From Shigella phage Buco, in sequence record MK562503: a DNA stretch of 43,630 nt, one strand, 5' to 3'. Every line of letters starts with the position of its first letter. Position 1 is the stretch's first letter. Position numbers and translations under genes: made by a program. Positions 2,892-23,634 of this stretch are shown piece by piece. The notes beneath the pieces were generated by a model. The model was not told where the DNA came from, did no database searches, and saw only the letters and a list, made by a program, of their open reading frames with translations.

Positions 2892-3244
2892 CGCAAGACC
2901 TAACCCCGCTCACAGTATCGGAGGTAGCGGCGCTGTACTGGCGCATGCTTGAAACCGAGAGCAACGCTGGTTTAACCTGGGATAGCTACAGGAGAATTCC
3001 CGATGAACTCAAACCGCTCTGTCCTTGTGAGCGCCGACTTCGCCACGTTAGAAGAGAGGATGTTGTCTTGCTTGACACCCTCAGAACCTATTCTCCGGAG
3101 TGCGCAGCGCAGTCTCTGGCAAAGCTCCAGTTTCCCATCGTTGCAGAACTTACCACGAGAGGGTACGCCGGAGCATTCAAGGCTTTCAGCAGCGTTCTCA
3201 GACAGTACTACCGGGAGGCGTGCGCAATCCATTATTATGGATGA
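2879..3244 (+). CDS. Early hypothetical protein (121 aa)
   Basis: ORF-track entry; its translation looks more protein-like than the overlapping N-terminal extension of ORF 3003..4961. Confidence 0.55.
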   Translation: MPSLTQDLTPLTVSEVAALYWRMLETESNAGLTWDSYRRIPDELKPLCPCERRLRHVRREDVVLLDTLRTYSPECAAQSLAKLQFPIVAELTTRGYAGAFKAFSSVLRQYYREACAIHYYG

Positions 3245-4961
3245 GCCAGCGTATATCCTCCCCGGGCGAACTATAATCAAAGAGATACTCAACAACCACA
3301 AACAAGAAGAGGTGAAACCAATGCAACTTGAAATTAATGCTAACGCAATCTCTATGTCACTGGTTACCGGTGGCTATCACGATGGGAATGTTTACTACTT
3401 AACTCACGAACTCCCCCTTGAGGAGCTGGCTGATGAGCTGGGCAAGTGGATTAAATCTGAGCACACGCCCGAAGAGGTTATCCTGCGTATGCATCGCACC
3501 TTCTGGTACAGCTACATCGGCCCGGAAATTCTCTTGAGCAGAGACAACCATCCTCGCGGCAGCACAATAGGGCTGCACTGGGAAGATCTAACCGGGGGCA
3601 CGGCCTCAGCAATTCTTACCAAGCTAGGCTGGAAATCAGCTGGTTGGGATCAAGAGATCACTGCTACTAGTCCAGCCGGGCTGGTGCAGGCTGCTCAATC
3701 TCTGCTGCTGGGACATTTTAATCTGGTGCTGCATAAGGATGCGAGTGCTTTTGCTAATGCATTCATTGACGACTACAAGGAGGTAGTCCAAAAAACCGCC
3801 GGGGATATGGGGGTCTACTACAACACAAGCACTGGTCTCTACTCAGTAAAGAAGGTAGATTTAGTTAAGTTGCTTATGAACTTGAACGGGATCTTTGCAA
3901 ACCGGGGTGCAGTGCTGGTTGGCGAAGGCTTCAAAGATGGGAACCCTATGGCTATCCTTGCCCAACCAGTGTTTCGTGATGGGCAGTTGCAGGGCGTGAA
4001 GCTGCAAGAGCAGCGCATGGGGCGCTTCTTGACCAGCATCTTCGGCAACGCGAAAGACTTCCGCCCAGCCATTGATGACCTCAAGGTATACAACAAGAAG
4101 CCCCAGAGCTACCTTTGTGTAACAGAGGAGGAGTGGTATAATGCTTACGAGCAAGGCCCGGGCAGCTGCATGACCGATTATAAGTTTGACTGCTCCCCGG
4201 TGCGCGTCTACGCTACTACATCGCACGGGCTTCCTGATAACGGCCTGCGCCTGTGTATCAACTACACAGGGGAGTTGTTTGGTAAGGGATTCAGGGTGCT
4301 TAATCGCGCCATTGTCAATATTAACACCAAGGAATACGTCCGGGCATACGGTGAAAACGGTGATGCGGTCATGCGCAGCCTGGGTTATGAGCGCGATACT
4401 GGCGCAACCGACGGTGCTATCCTTGCCAAGATTCCGCATCCCCGTAACAACGGTGCGTATCTGATGCCGTATCTGGACGGGTCTGATGATGAAGTTGATG
4501 ACAACGACGATCACTGGGTCATCACATGCAGCGGGGATTATGGCGCTACGGATGCCAACGGATATATCTATGCGGGTGGCCGCTGCTGTGATTGCTGTGA
4601 TGAAAGAGTAGATGAGGATTCACTGACTGAGACAGCAGGTGGGGATGAGGTGTGTGGGGATTGCCTTGCGGAGAACTATGTGGTTCCCTTAGACAGGGAG
4701 GAATACTACCACCGGTGTGATTGCACCCATTCAGAATATGAGGGTGGTTGGGTATATGATAGTGACGTAGTGGATTGCCCAGTGTATGGCTGTGTATATT
4801 ATGGTAATACCATCTTTGCCCAGGGCCAGCGTGTACATGAAGACGCCACTGAGTGGTGCGAGGCGTTAGGTGACCACATCCTGACCGAAGAGGCGGCGGC
4901 CAATCTGGACGAACCTTACTTAGGCAGGGATGAAGAAGATACAGAAGAGGAAGCAGCATAA
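3237..4961 (+). CDS. Large early protein with a Cys-rich, acidic C-terminal region; function unknown
   Basis: In-frame ATG at 3237 overlaps the stop of the previous gene; an alternative start at 3321 has a strong site (gaggtga). C-terminal part carries clustered cysteines (CCDCC, CGDC, CDC, CPVYGC) and an acidic tail. Confidence 0.65.
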   Translation: MDEPAYILPGRTIIKEILNNHKQEEVKPMQLEINANAISMSLVTGGYHDGNVYYLTHELPLEELADELGKWIKSEHTPEEVILRMHRTFWYSYIGPEILLSRDNHPRGSTIGLHWEDLTGGTASAILTKLGWKSAGWDQEITATSPAGLVQAAQSLLLGHFNLVLHKDASAFANAFIDDYKEVVQKTAGDMGVYYNTSTGLYSVKKVDLVKLLMNLNGIFANRGAVLVGEGFKDGNPMAILAQPVFRDGQLQGVKLQEQRMGRFLTSIFGNAKDFRPAIDDLKVYNKKPQSYLCVTEEEWYNAYEQGPGSCMTDYKFDCSPVRVYATTSHGLPDNGLRLCINYTGELFGKGFRVLNRAIVNINTKEYVRAYGENGDAVMRSLGYERDTGATDGAILAKIPHPRNNGAYLMPYLDGSDDEVDDNDDHWVITCSGDYGATDANGYIYAGGRCCDCCDERVDEDSLTETAGGDEVCGDCLAENYVVPLDREEYYHRCDCTHSEYEGGWVYDSDVVDCPVYGCVYYGNTIFAQGQRVHEDATEWCEALGDHILTEEAAANLDEPYLGRDEEDTEEEAA

Positions 4962-5971: not shown

Positions 5972-6003
5972 GCAGTAACGAGCGACAATTCAACCATAAA
6001 CAA

Positions 6004-6024
6004 AATGAGGTTACACGGTATGGC
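6004..6024 (+). promoter_or_regulatory. Phage-promoter-like motif P1 (aatgagGTTACACGGTATgg)
   Basis: 12 of 14 match to the motif repeated at 21378, 42762 and 13102; overlaps the start of the next ORF, so its function here is uncertain. Confidence 0.35.
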
Positions 6025-6655
6025 AAAGGCAATCACTGTTAAGGTTACTGACAAGACTGATTTTGAAGCACACACTGCGTTGAAGCTCGGAGATATCTTG
6101 GTATTCAATGAGGATGGTGTTTATAAATATCCGAATGGTACCAACGGTACTTACAACGACCCCTGGCTTGAGAAGATGCTGAGCAACGGCTCATTCGCGG
6201 AGGTCCTGAGTGAGCGTAAATTCAGAGATACAGAAGCCCCTGAGTGGGCTACTGCCGTCGGGTGCTTCCAGGGCGGGTGGTACTGGGAGGAGGACATCAA
6301 CCAACGTAATGGGGCGCGCTTCCAGAACATAACAGGGACGAAGGCGTACGAGTACGACAACCACACTGTCAAAGGTTGGGACCAGTACAAAGTCCTGCCG
6401 GCGTTCGTGGAGGAGCAGCTACCGCCGGCACCGACTGCTGTCATGTACCTGAATGACACACCTACTGCCCACAGAGAACTTAAGTTACAAGGGGCCAAGG
6501 GATACCCCGGGCACTTGGTACTGAACGTAGGGGATGGTAAGGGTAACTCTAAGTCAATCGTGCTCAGTCCTGAATCAGCACTGCAACTGGCCCATGACCT
6601 GAATCGCATGGGTATGGCCGGTAAACGTAAACTAAAGGAGCAAGCTAATGGCTAA
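6020..6655 (+). CDS. Early hypothetical protein (211 aa)
   Basis: Second in-frame ATG of ORF 6005..6655, with gagg upstream. Confidence 0.55.
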   Translation: MAKAITVKVTDKTDFEAHTALKLGDILVFNEDGVYKYPNGTNGTYNDPWLEKMLSNGSFAEVLSERKFRDTEAPEWATAVGCFQGGWYWEEDINQRNGARFQNITGTKAYEYDNHTVKGWDQYKVLPAFVEEQLPPAPTAVMYLNDTPTAHRELKLQGAKGYPGHLVLNVGDGKGNSKSIVLSPESALQLAHDLNRMGMAGKRKLKEQANG

Positions 6656-13073: not shown

Positions 13074-13095
13074 ATCTGTGAAACAGGCCCTAATA

Positions 13096-13115
13096 GAATT
13101 CCACGGTATAGTACG
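13096..13115 (+). promoter_or_regulatory. Phage-promoter-like motif P2 (ttcCACGGTATAGtacgac)
   Basis: Shares the CACGGTATAG core (13102..13111) with P1, P3 and P4; followed by aggaga at 13120..13125 and a TTG start at 13132. Confidence 0.5.
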
Positions 13116-13131
13116 ACACAGGAGAACTACC

Positions 13132-14118
13132 TTGGCAAAGACCAGTCTAATTAAGTTGTGGACCAAAGAGCAGCACCAGGCAATCCTGGGTCGCTATTTA
13201 AACAATGAACGGGCAGCAGAAGAGTACAACAGCACCTACGTTGTACACGGCTGCGGCAACCCGGTATCCAGGCAGCTGGTGCGCTACTGGCGCAGCATCT
13301 TCATCGACAATGGCGGCAGCAAAGCGAAGGCTAATCATGGCTTACAAGAAGCGCGCAAACTCATTCAGCCAAGTCCCACTGATGATATTGGAGCTACTCT
13401 GGTTCCTGATGTTTGTCATCGGATTCTCGTCGTTGGGGATTTGCATGCTCCTTATACCCACGCTGATGCTCTTGAGTTTCTAAAGTCCGTCCGGGATGAA
13501 TACTGCCCGGACATGGTTATTCAGGTGGGTGACGAAACGGACGGACACGCAATCAGCTTCCATGACTCCGACCCGAACCTGGACAGCGCCGGGGTGGAGC
13601 TGGAGAAGGCTAAGGTAATTCTGGAGGACGTGCATGCGCTCTTCCCGAATCTACTCGTGTGCGACTCAAATCACGGGAGTCTTGTGTATCGTCGCGCCAA
13701 GGCTCACGGTCTACCGGTACAATTCATCAAGAAGTACCGGGATATTCTGTTTCCTGAGCACGGGGCACCGTCATGGAGTTGGGCGGATGCGTGGGTGCTC
13801 AACACGCCTCTTGGTCCGGTACGCTTCCAGCACCAAGTGTCAGGCGACTTTATGCTTAATGCGTCGCATGAGCGGACCAGTCTGGTTCTTGGTCACGAGC
13901 ACGGGCGATTCGAGGTACAGTACGCCGCTTCCAGCACCGCGCTGTATTTTGGCGCTTACGCAGGGTGCCTTATTGACCGCAAATCGCTTGCATTCGCATA
14001 CGGTAAGTTAACCCGTAAGAAACCAATCCTGGGCGTGATGGTTATCACTGAGGGTTGTCCACAATTAATTCCCATGCTACTCGACGATTCCGGTAGGTGG
14101 GTTGGGAGGGCTAAGTAA
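13132..14118 (+). CDS. Calcineurin-like metallophosphoesterase (possible DNA repair exonuclease or phosphatase)
   Basis: Motifs GDLHAPY, GDETDGH, CDSNHGS, GHEHG. No in-frame ATG precedes the first motif, so the TTG at 13132 is taken as start (alternative GTG at 13078). Confidence 0.7.
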   Translation: MAKTSLIKLWTKEQHQAILGRYLNNERAAEEYNSTYVVHGCGNPVSRQLVRYWRSIFIDNGGSKAKANHGLQEARKLIQPSPTDDIGATLVPDVCHRILVVGDLHAPYTHADALEFLKSVRDEYCPDMVIQVGDETDGHAISFHDSDPNLDSAGVELEKAKVILEDVHALFPNLLVCDSNHGSLVYRRAKAHGLPVQFIKKYRDILFPEHGAPSWSWADAWVLNTPLGPVRFQHQVSGDFMLNASHERTSLVLGHEHGRFEVQYAASSTALYFGAYAGCLIDRKSLAFAYGKLTRKKPILGVMVITEGCPQLIPMLLDDSGRWVGRAK

Positions 14119-14309
14119 TGGCGACGTATCAAGTTAAAGAAGAGTACCGCGAGGTGGTAACGGGTATCCGCACCTACACCGTGGAGGCCAACTCTACGGA
14201 GGAGGCCTGGAATAAGGTGGACAGCGGGGATGTAACACCGGACTCGGAGACCAAAGAGTACAAGGATTCTGACTACAGTATGATTAGCGCATTCATAGTA
14301 GTGCCCTAA
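14118..14309 (+). CDS. Hypothetical acidic protein (63 aa)
   Basis: ORF-track entry; start overlaps the upstream stop (TAATG). Confidence 0.5.
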   Translation: MATYQVKEEYREVVTGIRTYTVEANSTEEAWNKVDSGDVTPDSETKEYKDSDYSMISAFIVVP

Positions 14310-14368
14310 TCCGTTGCGCTCTGCATCTGCACGTAAATTTTATTTAATCTAAACGAGGACGTAATTAT

Positions 14369-15208
14369 ATGACTACTGCTTTTAACCCACTGGCTAACCT
14401 TGGTTCCCTGGTAGACGCTGCTATCGCCACTCAGTCTGTGGATATGACCCAGACCGGGGCAGGTGGCTTCGAGGATGTGCTGCTGCCGAAAGGTGAATAC
14501 TACGGCCACTTTGTTGAGTACGTAGAGTACGGTAAGCGTATTCCGACCAACAAGGGTAAGCCGACTGGTAAACCGGCAGTGCTGAATACCCGCGTATGCT
14601 TCATTGTATACGGCCCTGACGGTGTTAAGAAGCGCATTCGCTCCTGGTATTTGCCAGTGTTCAACTCTGAGCGCGCCAACTTCAAGAAGCTGTTTGACCG
14701 CCTGAACTGCGGTGGGGACATTCAACATGCCGCGCAGAAACTGGGTACGGCCTGGGTTATCCCGGTGGACCAGCATACTTCTGCAACTGGCAATACCATC
14801 AATATCATCGACTACGCAACCATCCGACCGCTGCCGAAATTTGACCCGAACACCGGACAGCCTATCGCTATCCCGGACCTGGACCCGGAGGACGTACGTA
14901 TCTTCCTGTGGAACAATCCGACTAAGGAGACCTGGGATAGCCTCTTCATTGACGGTAAGAAGGATGACGGCACCAGCAAGAACTTCATTCAGGAAGATAT
15001 CATGAAGGCTGTGGACTTCGAAGGTTCACCGTTGCAGCAGATGCTGACCGGGGGTATCCCATCACCGGAAAGTATGGCACCGGTGGCACCCGCAGCACAG
15101 GTAGCTCCGACGGCTCCAGCAGCTCCGGTCAGCCCGGTGGCCCCGGCTGCGCCTGCCGCACCAGTGGCACCACAGGCTCCGCAAGCCCCGGCAGCACCGA
15201 CTGCCTGA
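14369..15208 (+). CDS. Hypothetical protein with Pro/Ala-rich low-complexity C-terminal tail
   Basis: 279 aa; acgaggac upstream; the last roughly 45 residues are APVAPAAQVAPTAPAAPVSPVAPAAPAAPVAPQAPQAPAAPTA. Confidence 0.65.
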   Translation: MTTAFNPLANLGSLVDAAIATQSVDMTQTGAGGFEDVLLPKGEYYGHFVEYVEYGKRIPTNKGKPTGKPAVLNTRVCFIVYGPDGVKKRIRSWYLPVFNSERANFKKLFDRLNCGGDIQHAAQKLGTAWVIPVDQHTSATGNTINIIDYATIRPLPKFDPNTGQPIAIPDLDPEDVRIFLWNNPTKETWDSLFIDGKKDDGTSKNFIQEDIMKAVDFEGSPLQQMLTGGIPSPESMAPVAPAAQVAPTAPAAPVSPVAPAAPAAPVAPQAPQAPAAPTA

Positions 15209-15279
15209 ACTCCTGACGACTACTGGTCTGATGATTGCCCCTTCTAATTAAAGGGCCCCACGGGGTCCCTGGAGATTAT

Positions 15280-15534
15280 ATGAACCTGATTAAGATTTTA
15301 GTTAAGCTGCTGGACAAAGCCTACCATGCGGAAGCCCGTAAACATCAGAGGGCAGCAGATAAGCACGCTGCCGATTCCCAACGCCACCACCAGGCGGCGG
15401 AGCAACTGCGTGCACAAGCAGCTGCCGCTGTAGGTGCCGGGGTTTCCAGCGCGCGTAGCTCTGAGCTCGCGTATAATCGGGCCAAGAAGATCCAGGCCAA
15501 AGCCGCCCAAGTATCCCAGTTCTTCACTGTGTAA
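15280..15534 (+). CDS. Hypothetical helical basic protein (84 aa)
   Basis: Internal ATG of ORF 15235..15534 preceded by ggaga. Confidence 0.5.
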   Translation: MNLIKILVKLLDKAYHAEARKHQRAADKHAADSQRHHQAAEQLRAQAAAAVGAGVSSARSSELAYNRAKKIQAKAAQVSQFFTV

Positions 15535-15543
15535 GGAGTAATA

Positions 15544-15903
15544 ATGACTGATAAACTACTGCATGCATACCTCCGGGTAGCCGAGGCTATTGGTAATTAT
15601 GTAGCCATGAACAGGGAGGTGGCCGGAGTAAAGGTGGCGCTATATGACCTGGCTGCTCTGTACGGCATTGACCTGGCTGCGTACGAGAAAGAAATCCTGG
15701 AGCGCAACGATATCCCGGGGCAGGCGGACAGCCTACGTGGTGACCCGCTGGTAGAGGTGCGTATGACCGGCACCCTGGCGCAGGGCCTGGCAGATATCGC
15801 CAGCTGTGTCTATGACCCGGAGACAGGTCTGCAAATGGCCGAAATTACCGGGCAAGTTCTGGGCACTGTATTAATTATTCAGGAGTATGAGAATGCGCTC
15901 TAA
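15544..15903 (+). CDS. Hypothetical all-helical protein (119 aa)
   Basis: ORF-track entry; aggag upstream; faint, unverified MazG-like helical pattern. Confidence 0.55.
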   Translation: MTDKLLHAYLRVAEAIGNYVAMNREVAGVKVALYDLAALYGIDLAAYEKEILERNDIPGQADSLRGDPLVEVRMTGTLAQGLADIASCVYDPETGLQMAEITGQVLGTVLIIQEYENAL

Positions 15904-16084
15904 ACTATCTATTCTTTTTGCTGCTCCAGCAGGGCTGCTTATGGCCACCGGTATTGTTCTACTGGGCCTGGGCGGCCTGATTGCTGGGCAAGGTTTCTTA
16001 CGCCCCACTCGTATCCTTTCAGAAGAATTCCGAGATGCCTTGGTCACAGCCAAGGCGCGCCTCCTGGCGAGTAGGCGCAAATGA
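15893..16084 (+). CDS. Small membrane protein (63 aa)
   Basis: ATG at 15893 after caggag; hydrophobic core LSILFAAPAGLLMATGIVLLGLGGLIAG. Confidence 0.45.
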   Translation: MRSKLSILFAAPAGLLMATGIVLLGLGGLIAGQGFLRPTRILSEEFRDALVTAKARLLASRRK

Positions 16085-17025
16085 TTATCCGGGGGCTGGA
16101 CCTAGCGAATCTGGGGGAACAGCTAGCCCCCGCCAACCCCGGTAAGGTATTGCTGCTGGACGGGGACTTCCTGGTGTACAAGGCAGCGGCAACTGTCAAG
16201 ACCCTGCCTACCGCTATCCGGCGCTTCTACCAGCTGGTGCTGGAGGAGATGTTTCTGGTTGGGGTGCAAGAGTGCTTCGTGTATCTGACTCCCACTGGGT
16301 GTGCTAAGTGCAACCGCTGGCATCTGCCGACGGTGAAGCCCTACCAGGGACAGCGGGCTAATCGCGTGGAGCTGCCCCTTAAGGGACCTCTGAAAACGCA
16401 CCTATTGAATAACCCGGACGAGTACAGCAGCCAGAATATTCAGGTAGTCGGGAGCATGTTCTATGAAGCTGATGACCTGATAGTAATGGACTCCTACGCT
16501 TTCAAGGAGCGCTGCATCGTTAGCTCCGGGGATAAGGACCTATGGTTAAGTCCCTGGGCCAGGATGAATGCGGAGACCGGAGAGGTCTGGGCACCGCTGG
16601 AGGACTCCTACGGCTGGATTGAGTGGGATGAGACCAAGGCTATGCCTGTGCGTGGGCACGGTCTGAAGTTCTTCTGGTGGCAAATGCTGGCTGGGGATGA
16701 GGCAGATAACATCAAAGGCATCCGTACGCTGCATGGGCGGCTCTGTGGCAAGGCTACGGCCTTCCAGGCTATCAACCCTATGGCTACAGCGGACGAGGCC
16801 GCAGAGCTCGTTATAGGAGCTTACGCAGCAATCAATCAAGACCCCTTAGCTGAGGCTGAGGCACTGTTTCTGAGACGGCATGAGCGGGACTCTGGTTATG
16901 AGTACATTATGTCGGTGCTGGCTAATCCTGCTTACAGGGACTGGCTCACCAGTCTCAGGGATTATCACACACAGCACATTCAGTATGTGCAGGAGCTTTC
17001 GCTTTATGGCATCGAAGAAACGTAG
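16081..17025 (+). CDS. 5'-3' exonuclease (FEN/T7 gene 6-like)
   Basis: N-terminal LLDGDFLVYKAA, acidic GDKDL, and GDEADNIKGI helix-hairpin-helix-like motif. Confidence 0.75.
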   Translation: MIIRGLDLANLGEQLAPANPGKVLLLDGDFLVYKAAATVKTLPTAIRRFYQLVLEEMFLVGVQECFVYLTPTGCAKCNRWHLPTVKPYQGQRANRVELPLKGPLKTHLLNNPDEYSSQNIQVVGSMFYEADDLIVMDSYAFKERCIVSSGDKDLWLSPWARMNAETGEVWAPLEDSYGWIEWDETKAMPVRGHGLKFFWWQMLAGDEADNIKGIRTLHGRLCGKATAFQAINPMATADEAAELVIGAYAAINQDPLAEAEALFLRRHERDSGYEYIMSVLANPAYRDWLTSLRDYHTQHIQYVQELSLYGIEET

Positions 17026-17212
17026 TGCAAAGGAGCTGCGGCTCCTGGCCCTGGAACTCTACTTTACGGAGAAGCATGATGAACTCGAATTGGTTATGTC
17101 TGAAATGGCTGAACGGTTCCCAAGAACACATCGAAGCACGGTTAAAGAGCTGGATTCTATCATTCACGAACAACATGACCTGGATTGCGTAGGGGAGATT
17201 AAACTATGCTGA
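17006..17212 (+). CDS. Hypothetical protein (68 aa)
   Basis: Internal ATG of ORF 16880..17212 preceded by aggagc; overlaps the end of the exonuclease gene. Confidence 0.4.
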   Translation: MASKKRSAKELRLLALELYFTEKHDELELVMSEMAERFPRTHRSTVKELDSIIHEQHDLDCVGEIKLC

Positions 17213-17457
17213 TTAAGCACGGCGACACCTATCGAGTAGATATTGTACGTCCTTACATAGCAAAACCTAATGCACCTGGAATCTCCTATGCAGGTGACTT
17301 TCCTTACTGGTGGCCGCACTCCTGGTCTGTAAACTATGGCGGATATGTACTCTTCTTTGCAGCCAAACCTACGCGTAAGCAAATTCGTAAGATGGTGAGA
17401 TGGGTGCGGGACAGTTTACCATATGATAAACATCCGGAGGATGCGCCGTGGCATTAA
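17206..17457 (+). CDS. Hypothetical protein (83 aa)
   Basis: ORF-track entry; ggggaga upstream. Confidence 0.5.
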   Translation: MLIKHGDTYRVDIVRPYIAKPNAPGISYAGDFPYWWPHSWSVNYGGYVLFFAAKPTRKQIRKMVRWVRDSLPYDKHPEDAPWH

Positions 17458-17879
17458 GGAAGGTTACCCGGGGTCAAATCCGGGCCGTAGCAATGCGCCT
17501 GGCAAAGGAGCAGGGTGGGGTGTGCCCCCTCTGCTTTGAGCCTTTGGACTTCTCAATCAAGGGGGTGACTGGTGATTCAGTTGTCGTCGACCACTGCCAT
17601 ATCACGGGCAGAATCCGAGGTGCTCTGCACCGCTCATGTAATGGCGGGGAGGGTAAAGTGGCCTCCGCCGCTGGGCGGTGGGTGGTGGGTAGTATGCAGT
17701 CTACTGCTGCTATTGCTACTGCGCTACGTCGTATCGCTGACTACCTAGACAAGGAACCGTCGGACCTGGTATACTATACGCATAAAACGCCGGAAGAAGC
17801 TGCTGCCGCATTGAAGATGCGCGCGCGCCGCCGCCGAGTCCAACGTAAGGCAAGAGAGGTTATCAAGAGTGTTCAATAA
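17448..17879 (+). CDS. Endonuclease VII-family resolvase
   Basis: CPLC...DHCHITGRIRGALHRSCNGGEG matches the T4 endonuclease VII zinc/His-Me signature; GTG start after ggagga. Confidence 0.75.
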   Translation: MALRKVTRGQIRAVAMRLAKEQGGVCPLCFEPLDFSIKGVTGDSVVVDHCHITGRIRGALHRSCNGGEGKVASAAGRWVVGSMQSTAAIATALRRIADYLDKEPSDLVYYTHKTPEEAAAALKMRARRRRVQRKAREVIKSVQ

Positions 17880-18354
17880 ACCTATCATAGTATTTGACCT
17901 GGATGGTACGCTGGCAGACGGGCGTCATCGCCTGCATCTTCTGCCAAAGAAGGATTACCACCTTACCGAATCCTGGACGGAGTTTAATCTCGCTGCGGTG
18001 GATGACCTCCCTATTAGGGATAACATCGTGCTTTGTAATGCACTGTACCAGCATTACTACATCATTATCCTAACCGGTCGCAGCGATGTTGCTGGGCAAG
18101 TTACTCGCCAGTGGCTGCAAAAACACGGTGTGATGTATAGTGAGTTGATTATGCGTAAGCAGACGGATAATCGGAAGGATGTACAGATTAAAGAGGAAGA
18201 GCTGCGTAGAATTGGATTAGACCAGATTCTGTGCTGCTTCGACGACTTACCGCACGTAGCCTATCACATGCGTGGCCTGGGACTGACCTGTCATCTGGTC
18301 ACCCACTACGAAGAGCTGCGTACTGACCTAGTGTCACATGGAGAAGATAAATGA
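17869..18354 (+). CDS. HAD-superfamily phosphatase (nucleotidase or 3'-phosphatase-like)
   Basis: N-terminal FDLDGTL motif and later aspartates; 161 aa. Confidence 0.6.
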   Translation: MFNKPIIVFDLDGTLADGRHRLHLLPKKDYHLTESWTEFNLAAVDDLPIRDNIVLCNALYQHYYIIILTGRSDVAGQVTRQWLQKHGVMYSELIMRKQTDNRKDVQIKEEELRRIGLDQILCCFDDLPHVAYHMRGLGLTCHLVTHYEELRTDLVSHGEDK

Positions 18355-18821
18355 AAGCTATCTGTATAGAGCCAGTTCGCAATCTCACCAAAGGTGCGGT
18401 GTATGATATCCGTCCTGTAGATGCAACGTATGTAAAATTAATTATGGATGATGGCTCAGAGAGAGAGTTGTTTGCCCGCCGCTTCCAACCTTTCACTGAG
18501 GCGGTAGCGTCTCCGCAGCCAGATCTGAAGTACGACCAAGGCAAACCTCGCATGTCCTTGCTGTTAAGTGGCTGCCCGCTGGCCCTGGAGGCGGTGGGGC
18601 AGGTGCTGACCTTCGGCGCGCAGAAGTACGAGGCCCATTCCTGGCAGACGGTGGACAACGGACGGGAGCGCTACGAGAGCGCACTCATGCGGCATCTGCT
18701 CGCTATCGGTAAAGGTGAGGACAGAGATAGTGAATCCGGCCTGCATCACCTGGCGCACGCCGCCTGCAATGCCCTGTTTATTCTGGAACTTGAACTTCGT
18801 AAGCAGCAAGCAAAACAATAA
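18351..18821 (+). CDS. Hypothetical protein, possible nucleotide pyrophosphohydrolase-like helical domain
   Basis: Pattern KYDQGKPRMSLL...FGAQKYEAHSWQ...RYESALMRHLLA...GLHHLAHAACNALFILE; family assignment is from memory and tentative. Confidence 0.5.
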   Translation: MKAICIEPVRNLTKGAVYDIRPVDATYVKLIMDDGSERELFARRFQPFTEAVASPQPDLKYDQGKPRMSLLLSGCPLALEAVGQVLTFGAQKYEAHSWQTVDNGRERYESALMRHLLAIGKGEDRDSESGLHHLAHAACNALFILELELRKQQAKQ

Positions 18822-18826
18822 CTATT

Positions 18827-18835
18827 TGATATAAT
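18827..18835 (+). promoter_or_regulatory. Extended -10 element (TGaTATAAT) just upstream of the RNAP start
   Basis: Perfect TATAAT at 18830..18835 preceded by TG at 18827..18828; no good -35 hexamer. Confidence 0.25.
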
Positions 18836-18851
18836 GGGAGAATATGCGCCT

Positions 18852-21332
18852 ATGACTAGCGCCCCGCTGTTCACTTATCAGTTCCACGGCACTGACGTTA
18901 CAGAAGCACAGGTACAGCGCCAGGCTCAGCTGGAGCAGGACTACCGCACCCGCGGCCTTGACCGCTCCCGGAGACTGGTACGCGAAGCTATTGAGTCCGG
19001 CAGAGTATCGACGCTACCGGCGGCACAGCGTCTGATTGCTGCCGCTTATGATACGGTAGCGCTCCAGCTGGATCGTATCAAAGCAGAGAAGGCCCCGGGG
19101 GTCGGTGGCCGCTACCGCGCGCTGCTTCGACAGGTGCCGACCACGGTGCTTGCCGCGCTGTCCCTGACTAAGTGCATTGACCTCATGGCGTGTGGGAACG
19201 GGCACAGCACCAACAGCTCTGCGCAGTCGGTTATGTCCGCACTGGGCCGACTGGTGGAATCTGAGCTGCTGAGCATTCAGCTGAAGGCCGTGGCTCCGGC
19301 GTACATGAACAGGGTGCACGAGTATCTGAAAGAGCGCCACACTAAGAACTCGTCGCATATTCTCCAGACCTACCGGGCGTCAGCAGAGAACGTACACTTC
19401 AACCACGAGAACTGGAGCAATGCCCAGTGCATCTCCGTTGGCCGGTTGCTGATGCAGGCAGTATACAGCACTGGCATGTTCCAGTGGCGCAAGGGTTCTG
19501 ATGCTAGCCAGCTTACGTACCTGGAACCCTCTGAGGAGGTGCAGGGGGTGCTAACGGACCTGGTACAGAATGCAGACTCAGTGACATACAAGCCGCCGAT
19601 GCTGGTGCCGCCGCTGGCGCATGAGACAATCTTCTCTGGCGGGTACATTACGGACATTGACCGGCGCGGTACTTACAAGAACACCCAAATAACGCGCAGG
19701 CAGCTCCGTGACGTGGCGAACAGCTTCAAGGAAGCCCAGGGTATTAAAGACGCTCTGAACCGCGCACAGAGCGTCCCATACCGTATAAACAAGGGTATGC
19801 TGGAACTGGTGCGAGAGGCTCAGCGCCTCGGGGTGGCTGTAGGTATGCCCAGCACTAACCCAGCACCGAAGCCGCAGTGGTATCTGGACGGGGTGCCAAA
19901 GGAGACCTACAGTGAGCGCCAGCTTGACGACTTCAATGAGTGGAAGCTCATGATGCGCGAGTGGTACAACGAGGACCGTACCCGTATCAGCCAGCTCCGC
20001 CAAGTGGCCCGTACCCTGCAAATGTCTGAGGAGTTTAAAGATGAGCCAGCCCTGTACTTCCCGACCTGTGTGGACTGGCGATATCGCGTCTACTTCAAAT
20101 CCTCCCTGCATCCCCAGGGTTCTGATTTGCAGAAAGCCCTGCTGTGTTTTGGGCGCGGAAAGGCCCTTGGCGCACGCGGGTTATTCTGGCTTAAGGTACA
20201 CGTCGCTACATGCTTTGGTTATGACAAAGCCTTATTCGAGCAGCGTGCAGCTTGGGCTGATGCAAACTATGCAATCATTGAACAGGTTGCAGATAACCCC
20301 TTTGATTCTGAGTCTTTTAAACTTGCCGATTCGCCGTGGTGTTTCCTTGCGGCATGTATCGACCTGGTTAATGCTACCCGCTCTGGCAGCCCGGAGCAGT
20401 ATGTATCGCACATCCCAGTCGCTATGGACGCTACAAACTCTGGTGGGCAGCACTTCTCCGGAATGCTCCGAGACCCGGTAGGCGGACGCTTAACGAACCT
20501 GTTCTGGGAAGGCAACGAGGAGAAGGCGGACCTGTACATGGACGTGAAGCAGCGTACAGACTCCAAGGTTATCATGGATTTAGCTAATCCAGACTTCGTG
20601 GTACAGGCGCACTACTGGATGGAGAATAGCATCACCCGTACCATGACCAAGCGCCCGAGCATGACCTACTTCTACAGCGCCACGGTGCGCTCCTGTAGCG
20701 ACTACATCGTTACCGGCGCTAAGGGGGAGGGCTATGAGGGCACGGAGGAATACAGTCTCTGGAAGCTGGCAGGTTATCTGGCCCCGCGTATGCGCAACGC
20801 TATCGAGGAGGCCAACCCGGCAGCGGCGGCAGCTATGCATTACTTGCAGCAGGTGGCCCGACGGGTCCCGGTGAAGCTGCATCTGCAATGGAAAACCCCG
20901 TTAGGTGGGCTCGTTATCAATCGTTATACCGAGTCTAAGGAGACCCGTGTCCGCATCGACAGCATGAACCTGACGTCTCTGCTGGCATACAACCGGGACT
21001 ACGAAATTAATAACAGGAAGAAGGCCGCTTCCGGCATCGCTCCGAACTTTGTGCATAGTCTGGATGGTACGCATCTTATGATGGTTATCACTGCATTTAG
21101 CGGCGATATCGTGCCTATTCACGACTCGTTGGCGACACATGCTTGTGACGTTGATGAGATGCACCGGGTAATCCGTGAGCAGTTCGTGAAGCTGTATACC
21201 GAGAACGACCCTCTGCAAACCGTAGCTGATGCAGCAGTAGCAGTAGGCGCTGACCTATCAGGTATCGAAATGCCGGAACATGGCAGACTGGACCTGCGGC
21301 AAGTGCTTGATTCGCCCTTCTTTTTCTGCTAA
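18852..21332 (+). CDS. Single-subunit DNA-dependent RNA polymerase (T7 RNAP-like)
   Basis: About 826 aa; catalytic motifs PVAMDATNSGGQHFSGMLRD and IHDSLATHA. Start taken at the ATG with gggagaa upstream; ORF opens at 18834. Confidence 0.9.
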   Translation: MTSAPLFTYQFHGTDVTEAQVQRQAQLEQDYRTRGLDRSRRLVREAIESGRVSTLPAAQRLIAAAYDTVALQLDRIKAEKAPGVGGRYRALLRQVPTTVLAALSLTKCIDLMACGNGHSTNSSAQSVMSALGRLVESELLSIQLKAVAPAYMNRVHEYLKERHTKNSSHILQTYRASAENVHFNHENWSNAQCISVGRLLMQAVYSTGMFQWRKGSDASQLTYLEPSEEVQGVLTDLVQNADSVTYKPPMLVPPLAHETIFSGGYITDIDRRGTYKNTQITRRQLRDVANSFKEAQGIKDALNRAQSVPYRINKGMLELVREAQRLGVAVGMPSTNPAPKPQWYLDGVPKETYSERQLDDFNEWKLMMREWYNEDRTRISQLRQVARTLQMSEEFKDEPALYFPTCVDWRYRVYFKSSLHPQGSDLQKALLCFGRGKALGARGLFWLKVHVATCFGYDKALFEQRAAWADANYAIIEQVADNPFDSESFKLADSPWCFLAACIDLVNATRSGSPEQYVSHIPVAMDATNSGGQHFSGMLRDPVGGRLTNLFWEGNEEKADLYMDVKQRTDSKVIMDLANPDFVVQAHYWMENSITRTMTKRPSMTYFYSATVRSCSDYIVTGAKGEGYEGTEEYSLWKLAGYLAPRMRNAIEEANPAAAAAMHYLQQVARRVPVKLHLQWKTPLGGLVINRYTESKETRVRIDSMNLTSLLAYNRDYEINNRKKAASGIAPNFVHSLDGTHLMMVITAFSGDIVPIHDSLATHACDVDEMHRVIREQFVKLYTENDPLQTVADAAVAVGADLSGIEMPEHGRLDLRQVLDSPFFFC

Positions 21333-21338
21333 CTAAGT

Positions 21339-21369
21339 GGGTGGTTTTACGACCTAAAATCACCCTTTT
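21339..21369 (+). terminator. Stem-loop plus T4 tract after the RNAP gene
   Basis: gggtggtttta / taaaatcaccc 11-bp stem (one G-U pair), 5-nt loop, then tttt at 21366..21369. Confidence 0.45.
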
Positions 21370-21371
21370 CA

Positions 21372-21395
21372 AATGGTGTTACACGGTATAGTAGG
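21372..21395 (+). promoter_or_regulatory. Phage-promoter-like motif P3 (aatggtGTTACACGGTATAGtag)
   Basis: Core GTTACACGGTATAG at 21378..21391, followed by gggaga and the ATG at 21407. Confidence 0.55.
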
Positions 21396-21406
21396 GAGAA
21401 CCCCCG

Positions 21407-21814
21407 ATGACCTATTCAGTTAAACTATATAACTGGTCAACACATTCTGACTATATAAAAACCCTTATTCAAGAGTTCCATATCTATGGTCATGGTATAG
21501 AGCTAGGTATGGACCCTAGTGAACATTTAGAGAGGGTATTAAACTGGTCAGTTAACAATTCTGTTATAGTGCTATACTCTGGTGATATCCCTGTAGGTAT
21601 TGTAGGGGTAGTGCCACAGCTACAGAGAGACCCGCACTTCCCGGGGTTGAGCATGCACACCAGCTTCACAGTGGTTCTACCGGGGTATCCGGGAGCTGCG
21701 CTGAAACTGTACCGGGCATTGCGAACCGTGGCTAAGTTAAATGGAGCTGACTGGCTATGTACCAGCAAGCGCACTGATAACCTAACTTACACGTTAAGAG
21801 GACACCCACTATGA
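21407..21814 (+). CDS. Hypothetical protein in an AT-rich segment (possible small acyltransferase-like fold)
   Basis: 135 aa; own promoter-like motif and ribosome-binding site; first roughly 200 nt visibly AT-rich relative to flanks; the acyltransferase resemblance is weak. Confidence 0.6.
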   Translation: MTYSVKLYNWSTHSDYIKTLIQEFHIYGHGIELGMDPSEHLERVLNWSVNNSVIVLYSGDIPVGIVGVVPQLQRDPHFPGLSMHTSFTVVLPGYPGAALKLYRALRTVAKLNGADWLCTSKRTDNLTYTLRGHPL

Positions 21815-22071
21815 GTGGAGTTAAAAACATTCTGAGCGACGCCACTGACCTGGTAGGGCTCACTAACACAGACGCCCTGGAGGCTCAGCAGAAGGCTGCT
21901 AAAGAGCAGCAGCGCGCTATGGAGAACGAAGCTGCCCTGCAAGCTAACGGCGCAGCAGACAATATTACATCGGTAAGCTCAGGTGGCGCTGCATCAGCAT
22001 CCTCTGATGCAATCACCGCATCCCAGAAGAAGCGCCGCGCTGGTAGCATGAGCAACGTGCTGGGCATCTAA
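21811..22071 (+). CDS. Small hypothetical protein upstream of portal (86 aa)
   Basis: ORF-track entry; Ala/Ser/Gln-rich. Confidence 0.5.
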   Translation: MSGVKNILSDATDLVGLTNTDALEAQQKAAKEQQRAMENEAALQANGAADNITSVSSGGAASASSDAITASQKKRRAGSMSNVLGI

Positions 22072-22080
22072 GGAGATACA

Positions 22081-23634
22081 ATGCAAGGGCAGCAGAAAGA
22101 ATCACTGGAGTCCCTGTTTACTAAGGACTCGGACCCGACTGTATTAGACGCTGCCGAGCAATTTGCCCAGTGGACACTACCTACAGTGCTCACCCGGGAT
22201 ATCTCCGGAATGGACGGTAAGCGCACCTCCCTGCACCGCGACTATCAGAGTACGGGTGCGGTACTGGTGAACTCGGCATCGACCAAAGTTACTAATGCAC
22301 TGTTCCCACAAGGAGCCCCGTTCTTCCGGTTCGTGGACTCGCCAGACATGGCTGCTGCGGTAGCAGAGCTAGGTATCAATGGCACCGTGCAGTCACAGCA
22401 ATCACAAATTGAGTTATCAGCATCCAGCCTGGTGTTCTCTCGGGATAACTACGCCGCATCTCTCCGTGCCGTGAAATTACTCATGGTGACCGGGAATGCG
22501 TTGGAGTATTTCGACGAGGGCACCGGGCGTTCTCACATTTACAGTGTCCGAGAATACACGGTCCGCCGGGATGGTTCCGGGAATATCCTCCGGGTTGTGC
22601 TCAAAGAGCGCATCGCGGCTATGGACTTACCACAAGAGTTCCGGAGTGCACACCTGGGTCAGAAAGATGACTACGACGACGTAACGCTGTACACTGGTAT
22701 CTGTCTTGAAGATAACAAGTTCAAGATTTACCAGGAGGTGCAGCAGCAGCAGATTGGTGATGCCAGTACCTACCCCATTGACGAGTGCCCGTATACGGTG
22801 CTTGTGTGGAATCTGGTCAACGGAGAGCATTACGGTCGCGGCCTGGTTGAGGATTACGCGGGTGACTTTGCACGCTTGTCTGTGCTGAGCCAGGCCCTGA
22901 CCTTGTACGAGGTTGAGGCTGCGCGGCTGTACAACGCTGTGAGCGCAGGGGCGGGCATTGATGTAGACGCGGCACAGGCTGCTGAGACCGGCGATTATGT
23001 GCAGACCAGCGCAGCGCCGGGAACTAACCCGGGTATCTGGGCGGTTGAGAATGGTTCCGATAGGAAGATTATGTCTCTCCAGAGCGAAATCAGTATGATT
23101 GAGCAAAAGCTGGCGCGCGCATTCATGTACGCCGGGAACACTCGCCAAGGCGAGCGTGTTACAGCTTATGAGATTCGTACTAATGCTCAAGAGGCTCAGA
23201 ACTCTCTTGGAGATGCGTACAGCATCCTGAGTGACCACTGGCTGCGTAAGCGCGCTTATCTGTACACCGTGTACCAGTACCCTCCGATGCGTGCTATGTT
23301 TACACTTGGGGCTACCACCATTCAGATTCTGGTGGGTACAGCCTCGTTGAACAAGGCGGCGCAGGCAGACAGGTTACTGGAAGCGTCACAGAGTATTCAG
23401 CTTGTACTGCCAGTGCTGCAAGGGGCTACGAAGCGCACCAATCCGGACGCGGTCGTAGACTTTATTCTGGATGCATTCGGCGTAGTGAGCAGCAAGCTCA
23501 TGTACACCGAGGAGCAGCTTAAGCAGATTCAGGACCAGCAGGACCAGCAGCAGGCGGACCAGCAACGTAATCTGGAATTGGCACAGGCCAACCCAGAAGT
23601 CGCCGGGCAGCAGCTCGGTTTAATTCCATCATAA
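22081..23634 (+). CDS. Portal (head-tail connector) protein
   Basis: 517 aa; aaggag upstream; first large gene of the structural block, at the position of T7 gp8; Gln-rich C-terminus. Confidence 0.75.
   Translation: MQGQQKESLESLFTKDSDPTVLDAAEQFAQWTLPTVLTRDISGMDGKRTSLHRDYQSTGAVLVNSASTKVTNALFPQGAPFFRFVDSPDMAAAVAELGINGTVQSQQSQIELSASSLVFSRDNYAASLRAVKLLMVTGNALEYFDEGTGRSHIYSVREYTVRRDGSGNILRVVLKERIAAMDLPQEFRSAHLGQKDDYDDVTLYTGICLEDNKFKIYQEVQQQQIGDASTYPIDECPYTVLVWNLVNGEHYGRGLVEDYAGDFARLSVLSQALTLYEVEAARLYNAVSAGAGIDVDAAQAAETGDYVQTSAAPGTNPGIWAVENGSDRKIMSLQSEISMIEQKLARAFMYAGNTRQGERVTAYEIRTNAQEAQNSLGDAYSILSDHWLRKRAYLYTVYQYPPMRAMFTLGATTIQILVGTASLNKAAQADRLLEASQSIQLVLPVLQGATKRTNPDAVVDFILDAFGVVSSKLMYTEEQLKQIQDQQDQQQADQQRNLELAQANPEVAGQQLGLIPS

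Follow-up and report, generated by a model that had tools for sequence, protein, structure and literature searches.

A perfect extended −10 match in front of the RNA polymerase gene of Shigella phage Buco is probably an incidental spacer sequence

Introduction

Does a perfect copy of a host promoter element, lying just in front of a phage RNA polymerase (RNAP) gene, indicate that the gene has a promoter of its own? The question arises in the genome of Shigella phage Buco (record MK562503), the whole 43,630-nt sequence of which is the window analysed here. At 18827..18835 on the + strand, TGATATAAT matches the sigma70 extended −10 consensus TGnTATAAT perfectly, as we confirmed by reading the sequence: a TG (18827-18828) is followed by a spacer A (18829) and the hexamer TATAAT (18830-18835), an arrangement that by sequence belongs to the sigma70 extended −10 class, in which TG stands one base 5′ of a near-TATAAT hexamer. 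Promoter elements including the extended −10 are reviewed in PMC7057261. The motif falls inside the 30-nt gap that separates the TAA stop of gene 32 (open reading frame (ORF) 18351..18821) from ATG 18852 of the RNAP gene. The initial annotation of this locus had placed the match where a host-dependent promoter for the RNAP gene would be needed, adding that it may be coincidental. Our comparative evidence favours coincidence: the motif is absent from every relative examined, including the syntenic loci L102/L103, and sits on a mosaic breakpoint. We conclude that TGATATAAT is probably an incidental, Buco-specific spacer sequence and not a selected RNAP promoter, the absence of function being something we infer.

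Results

Comparison with relatives

Relatives were reached through an RNAP protein search, which returned roughly 2,700 RNAP-bearing phage records, after which contigs of relatives were fetched and aligned. Megablast of 18300-19500 against GenBank phages gave no match, an exact-pattern scan of IMG/VR with TTGATATAATGGGAGAATATGCG matched only Buco's own contig, IMGVR_UViG_2974508359_000001, and tracing of the spacer through homologues of the gene 32 product (gp32) yielded a best homologue only 65% identical and a gp32 cluster with a single member. The sole informative syntenic loci, L102/L103, were found through the RNAP cluster. They share with Buco the gene order HAD_PNKP, dGTP_diPhyd_N, RNAP, and align with it continuously over 18522-22829 at 80% nucleotide identity, spacer included. 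The junctions read as follows.

Buco: stop TAA; spacer CTATTTGATATAA; conserved block TGGGAGAATATGCGCCT; start ATG
L102/L103: stop TAA; spacer TCATTCGATAACC; conserved block TGGGAGAATATGCGCC; start ATG

At the position of the motif L102/L103 carry CGATAACCT, with CG for TG and TAACCT for TATAAT, so that four of the eight specified bases are changed against an average divergence of ~20%, while the 16 nt that follow the motif are identical to Buco. The block TGGGAGAATATGCGCC is also identical in L011, L097-L099, L101, L105 and L106, as it is in L102 and L103, and differs by one change in L100, L104 and L107. In six close relatives (L011, L097, L099, L100 and L101 among them) homology to Buco begins at 18831-18835, within the hexamer itself. 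These relatives carry other upstream genes, encoding DUF8272 or a gp49_66 protein, and in relatives with other upstream genes the spacer from stop codon to Shine-Dalgarno sequence is AAA, AAT or AGTC (3-4 nt) or GTTTAATCATAAT.

None of the 94 related RNAP loci scanned has TGNTATAAT at the equivalent position, and within 300 nt upstream of the gene it occurs among them only in L014 (at −51, inside a small ORF) and L063 (at −111). A selected promoter would be expected to be conserved in orthologous loci, and the motif is not. Scored with a position weight matrix, the upstream regions of 85 loci gave 7.36 bits against 5.79 bits for coding controls, a small and heterogeneous excess that is indicative only, the matrix being a crude one built from consensus frequencies.

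Between the RNAP gene and the DUF3310 or endonuclease VII genes lies a slot that is a hotspot of module exchange. It contains dGTP_diPhyd_N in Buco and L102, small ORFs with DUF8272 in L011, L099-L101 and L104-L107, and the gp49_66 protein in L097/L098, and its right-hand breakpoint always lies at the RNAP Shine-Dalgarno sequence (18351-18851 compared with L011 and L097-L107). A separate observation concerns a metagenomic sublineage whose RNAP is ~60-62% identical, where high-scoring sigma70-like sites occur upstream of a small gene that precedes the RNAP gene, ~108-111 nt from the RNAP start in L063, ~92 nt in L062 and ~111 nt in L058. The L063 site is a perfect TGTTATAAT with a good −35, and the sites of this sublineage may be a genuine host promoter.

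Chance expectation and promoter scoring

Across the genome and on both strands TGNTATAAT occurs twice, compared with 1.09 ± 1.14 expected, and two or more matches were reached in 30 of 100 shuffles; the pattern is thus not enriched in Buco. The other match is intragenic and serves as an internal control, since it shows that such matches arise by chance.

4134..4142, +: second match to TGNTATAAT, reading TGGTATAAT, inside ORF 3003..4961

Hexamers resembling a −10 abut Shine-Dalgarno sequences elsewhere too, at 21387, 25494 and 40687. On a rough two-hexamer promoter score, its matrix drawn from consensus frequencies, the missing −35 leaves the site at 18827 only 111th among + strand sites, and with the same rough matrix it ties for first with the intragenic copy when the extended −10 is scored alone. 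It is absent from the predictions listed by the genome promoter scan. The lack of a good −35 that the initial annotation had pointed out is borne out here: at 16-18 nt from the hexamer the best candidates, AAGCAA (16 nt) and CAAGCA (17 nt), agree with TTGACA at only two of six positions, and a decent −35-like TTGAAC exists at 18790-18795 but lies 34 nt from the hexamer. No convincing hexamer for an antisense promoter was found on reading the reverse complement (− strand), Rfam covariance models gave no match within 18600-19050 with E up to 1, and no inverted repeats of at least 8 nt were found around the site.

Predicted start site and ribosome-binding site

Buco is a phiKMV/KP34-like podophage of an enterobacterium, and the rules of Escherichia coli sigma70 apply to it. 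Sigma70 starts usually fall 6-8 nt after the −10 hexamer, and the GGGAGAA that lies directly 3′ of TATAAT contains the Shine-Dalgarno sequence of the RNAP gene. The features around the junction are listed below.

18819..18821, +: TAA stop of gene 32 (18351..18821), which encodes a dATP/dGTP diphosphohydrolase N-terminal domain protein
18822..18835, +: fast-evolving spacer CTATTTGATATAAT, from stop codon to Shine-Dalgarno sequence, which holds the motif
18827..18835, +: extended −10 match TGATATAAT, one of two in the genome
18834..18836, +: in-frame ATG within TATAATG, which opens the longest ORF and the 832-residue RNAP in GenBank
18836..18842, +: RNAP Shine-Dalgarno region GGGAGAA, of which GGGA would be the discriminator if the element were a promoter
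18841..18843, +: predicted transcription start under sigma70 holoenzyme, from the spacing of −10 to +1
18852..21332, +: RNAP gene, 826 residues from ATG 18852, assigned by homology

The gp32 sequence matches Pfam PF18909 (E 2e-34) and is identical to the gp32 deposited for Shigella phage Buco. From the spacing above, +1 is predicted at 18841-18843, 3′ of the GGAG core (18837-18840), and the Shine-Dalgarno GGAG would therefore be missing from the transcript, in accordance with the earlier remark that the start would clip the ribosome-binding site. A promoter of the T7 promoter C type would deliver the RNAP ribosome-binding site together with the start codon, and the transcript predicted here is without that ribosome-binding site.

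The start codon of the RNAP gene

Whether the motif abuts the RNAP start codon, as originally described, depends on which codon is meant: it does overlap the ATG 18834 used in GenBank, but the ATG supported by homologues, 18852, lies 16 nt 3′ of the hexamer. The Buco RNAP is 78.5% identical in amino acid sequence to that of Cronobacter phage Peggy, ~70% to those of Koutsourovirus and ~66% to those of Drulisvirus (KP34-like), and the single-subunit RNAP domains PF00940/PF14700 are present in the homologues. The deposited Buco protein has 832 residues from ATG 18834 and groups with the closest homologue in one 90% cluster. The 12 remaining proteins of that RNAP cluster have been called at 826 residues where full-length, or are a fragment.

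A start at ATG 18834 would turn TATAATG into a start context and GGGAGAA into coding sequence, and it can claim that this codon is in frame, opens the longest ORF and is the one used in the deposited record. We regard it as most improbable. No Shine-Dalgarno sequence lies 5′ of ATG 18834, while GGGAG stands at a workable distance from ATG 18852; alignments with homologues begin only at residue 15-18 of the 826-residue form; and the codon equivalent to 18834 (ATG or TTG) in L011, L097, L099-L102 and L104-L107 is out of frame and halted at a TGA that overlaps the real ATG. An extra T in Buco (GCGCC-T-ATG) brings ATG 18834 into frame. Sequence comparison thus makes ATG 18852 the likely RNAP start, and the GenBank form is probably six codons too long, its start an effect of picking the longest ORF. 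The likely start is accordingly corrected here from 18834 to 18852.

A mini-ORF of three codons, from ATG 18844 to TGA 18855, overlaps the RNAP ATG and might have served a near-leaderless transcript as a coupling device. We rejected this idea for lack of conservation of the mini-ORF: at its position L011 and other close relatives read ATGCGCCATGA, and the Drulisvirus loci have no upstream ATG.

A hairpin at the start codon and an alternative leader

The start codon itself lies within a conserved small hairpin.

18846..18862, +: hairpin in which GCGC 18846-18849 pairs with GCGC 18859-18862 and the RNAP start codon occupies the 9-nt loop, identified by comparative pairing

Across the Buco clade and Drulisvirus-like loci this 4-bp GCGC/GCGC stem is 100% paired in 14 distinct sequences, with two two-sided changes (ACGC/GCGT in L014; GCGT/ACGC in the L079 group) and one G-U wobble. 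The observed pairing was reached in 6 of 500 shuffles, and the stem is present in the minimum-free-energy fold. On these comparisons the hairpin could help to control translation of the RNAP gene.

A different conserved RNAP leader of ~43 nt, AACCTCA.AAACGTC..GATTAACGTAGAGG, occurs in Cronobacter phage Peggy and Koutsourovirus-type loci (L001 at 1449-1491; L002-L004 at 1455-1497; also L016, L017, L019-L021 and L069), where it is kept despite differing upstream genes. Its CCUC can pair with the Shine-Dalgarno GAGG and its ACG(U) with (A)CGU; one inner pair covaries from U-A to C-G, and the predicted energy is weak (−2.3 kcal/mol). As read from their alignments, both leader types seem to point to translational control of RNAP dosage and not to a local promoter. 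The start-codon hairpin and the Shine-Dalgarno-sequestering leader may tell more than the motif does about how phiKMV/KP34-like phages dose their RNAP.

Transcriptional layout of the genome

The initial annotation took a host promoter to be needed at this gene, and the layout of the genome speaks against that need. All Buco genes lie on the + strand and are tightly packed; from 13078 to 21332 they run contiguously with gaps of at most 59 nt, and the RNAP gene comes after the DNA-metabolism genes, 43% of the way along the genome. Terminator predictions 5′ of the RNAP gene are weak and no commoner than in shuffles. The first convincing hairpin with a U-tract lies directly 3′ of the RNAP gene and, going by its predicted fold, is likely the end of an early/middle transcription unit.

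21339..21369, +: terminator-like hairpin with an 11-bp stem and a 5-nt loop, then UUUU (−13.5 kcal/mol, z −2.06)
21371..21396, +: candidate phage-RNAP promoter AAATGGTGTTACACGGTATAGTAGGG (repeat families D6, D7 and D15)

The second of these features belongs to a five-copy family aAATGnnGTTACACGGTATAGnAG (6003-6028, 13092-13113, 21371-21396, 32864-32895 and 42751-42782) with the core GTTACA(C/G)GG(T)A(T)AG, which resembles the strong KP34 promoter T(A/G)ATGTTACAGGAGTA; by this resemblance its members are candidate Buco RNAP promoters. The KP34 RNAP promoter T(A/G)ATGTTACAGGAGTA has been defined experimentally; its copies follow the RNAP gene, occur in the structural region and lie close to a genome end (PMC6834552). 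Two of the Buco copies (6003 and 13092) lie upstream of the RNAP gene and would allow positive feedback. We rejected the idea that 18827 is a degenerate copy of this family: the KP34 pattern and the Buco family consensus both fail there, the pattern searches find 21375 and 32872 (with 6003, 13092 and 42751 recovered via repeats) and not 18827, and only TATA..GGGAG resembles the core.

Start-site mapping in related phages agrees with this layout. ONT-cappable-seq of LUZ19 located five left-end promoters, of which four are host-like, as well as phage promoters 3′ of the RNAP gene (PMC10914365). It placed no start site in front of the RNAP gene (PMC10914365), in agreement with KP34 (PMC6834552), and left-end host promoters have been described for Autographivirinae generally (PMC3765740). 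With a contiguous gene array, no convincing upstream terminator and host promoters confined to the left end in LUZ19 (PMC10914365), the evidence says that a local promoter for the RNAP gene is not needed.

At the ends of the Buco sequence we observed a perfect 127-nt direct terminal repeat (1-127 and 43504-43630), and the sequence is therefore a complete linear phage genome. The repeat holds a near-consensus extended −10, TGATAAAAT (84-92). Near the right end, upstream of the terminal repeat, 42614-42706 consists of ~10-nt tandem-like repeats with units of the GGTGGCTATG type (family D2).

Discussion

Interpretation and rival explanations

The preferred reading treats TGATATAAT as a seam between two modules. 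The 3′ end of the hexamer, AAT, would be part of a conserved RNAP translation-initiation module, (A)AT-TGGGAGAATATGCGCC-ATG; the 5′ part, TGATAT, would be the fast-diverging tail of the upstream dATP/dGTP diphosphohydrolase module; and the A/T-rich junction just after the TAA stop would have spelled the consensus by chance. The RNAP gene would then be expressed by long read-through transcripts from sigma70 promoters near the left end, later possibly also by transcripts from the phage-RNAP promoters upstream of the gene (6003 and 13092), which would end at the hairpin just 3′ of the gene, and translation would proceed from ATG 18852 via the conserved GGGAG. Since the −10 consensus match is good, host RNA polymerase may bind or fire weakly at the element as a cryptic promoter. 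Such an RNA, starting at ~18842, would have a leader of 10 nt that lacks a Shine-Dalgarno sequence, and would therefore contribute little RNAP.

Several observations weigh against an incidental origin. Extended −10 promoters are able to function without a −35 (Kumar et al. 1993; Barne et al. 1997, both cited in PMC7057261), and GGGA makes a favourable discriminator. Hardly any −10-proximal signal for sigma70 would be stronger than a perfect TGnTATAAT with GGGA behind it, and some host activity is plausible. In sense-strand intergenic DNA only, a test chosen post hoc, composition predicts 0.03-0.06 occurrences of the motif, so that its placement in such a gap is mildly unusual. Perfect or near-perfect extended −10 sites ~50-110 nt upstream of RNAP in L014, L062 and L063 could reflect recurrent promoter gain. 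In T7, finally, the RNAP gene (gene 1) is immediately preceded by an E. coli promoter, promoter C (PMC11863960). Together these points would favour a functional, recently acquired extended −10 host promoter that starts at ~18842 and gives the RNAP gene a transcript of its own, analogous to T7 promoter C; its perfect consensus and GGGA discriminator, its shared top score on the extended −10 alone, the low chance expectation, the TG 5′ of the −10 and the strong reporter activity of promoter C (PMC11863960), and the scattered strong promoter-like sites ahead of RNAP genes in other lineages would all fit. In one variant of this idea translation would be inefficient, the message having no Shine-Dalgarno sequence; in another the promoter would offer host RNA polymerase an extra entry point during genome internalisation. 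On the sequence comparisons above we nevertheless consider it unlikely: the motif is unconserved even in the syntenic relative and straddles a recombination breakpoint, the transcript would miss the conserved Shine-Dalgarno sequence, there is no −35, and start-site mapping in LUZ19 found no host promoter at the RNAP gene (PMC10914365). A very recent gain at the module junction, in which drift of the 14-nt spacer would have made a perfect extended −10 with GGGA and a transcript from ~18842, appears quite improbable. Its 10-nt leader without a Shine-Dalgarno sequence, with the start codon in the GCGC/GCGC hairpin loop, could provide a low early dose of RNAP or a second entry point for host RNA polymerase during internalisation. 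If this were true, the scattered perfect extended −10 sites of L014 and L063 would represent the same solution reached independently.

The A/U-rich spacer might instead act within the RNA, either by enhancing translation of the RNAP gene or as a ribosome standby site that binds ribosomal protein S1, the promoter resemblance being a side effect of A/U richness; Buco's RNAP gene would then have lost the tight stop-to-Shine-Dalgarno coupling of its relatives. A/T-rich bases are kept just 5′ of TGGGAG in all close relatives (AAA, AAT, CATAAT and TAAAAT), the RNA of 18800-18900 shows no excess of structure over shuffles (z +0.67), as expected of an accessible initiation region, and −10-like hexamers stand beside Shine-Dalgarno sequences at other genes (25494 and 40687). 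The specific sequence is not conserved, and relatives manage with 3-4 nt from stop to Shine-Dalgarno sequence, which leaves a dedicated enhancer rather doubtful; it is in any case largely compatible with an incidental promoter match and no true alternative to it.

The main use of the incidental reading is that it guards against annotating a host promoter before the Buco RNAP gene on motif strength alone. If the element fired in vivo, it would offer a small, clean case of a promoter born where phage modules meet, and of an RNAP message that lacks a Shine-Dalgarno sequence.

Comparison with known systems

The closest functional parallel is T7 promoter C, which like the Buco motif is a host sigma70-type signal just before a phage single-subunit RNAP gene and which was strong in a reporter study (PMC11863960). 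It also has a TG one base 5′ of its −10 (TTGACG-17 nt-TAGTCT, with TGA before the hexamer; TGATAGTCT in the reporter sequence) (PMC11863960). The two differ in that promoter C has a good −35, whereas the Buco element has none; in that the promoter C leader of ~50-60 nt includes the gene 1 ribosome-binding site, whereas the Buco start would fall 3′ of it; and in the position of the RNAP gene, near the left genome end in T7 and at 43% in Buco. The E. coli extended −10 promoters, for example those of the galP1 type, share with the Buco motif the exact TGnTATAAT and an optimal GGGA-type discriminator. Unlike the functional E. coli examples, the Buco motif is not conserved among orthologues, is predicted to give a transcript without a Shine-Dalgarno sequence and is known from sequence alone.

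Buco matches the phiKMV-like scheme of LUZ19 and KP34 in that the RNAP gene closes the DNA-metabolism block and is directly followed by a KP34-like promoter (GTTACACGGTATAG core), with further promoter-like copies, as in KP34, in the structural region and near the genome end. Host promoters are missing from the RNAP gene in this scheme, within which the Buco motif is an extra element that lacks a counterpart. The motif is most like the spurious or cryptic promoter sequences of A/T-rich DNA, being a short, high-scoring −10 match produced by drift, unconserved, placed at an A/T-rich junction and accompanied by a second match that is intragenic. It differs from typical sequences of that kind in being perfect over the eight specified bases and in lying in one of the few intergenic gaps of the genome.

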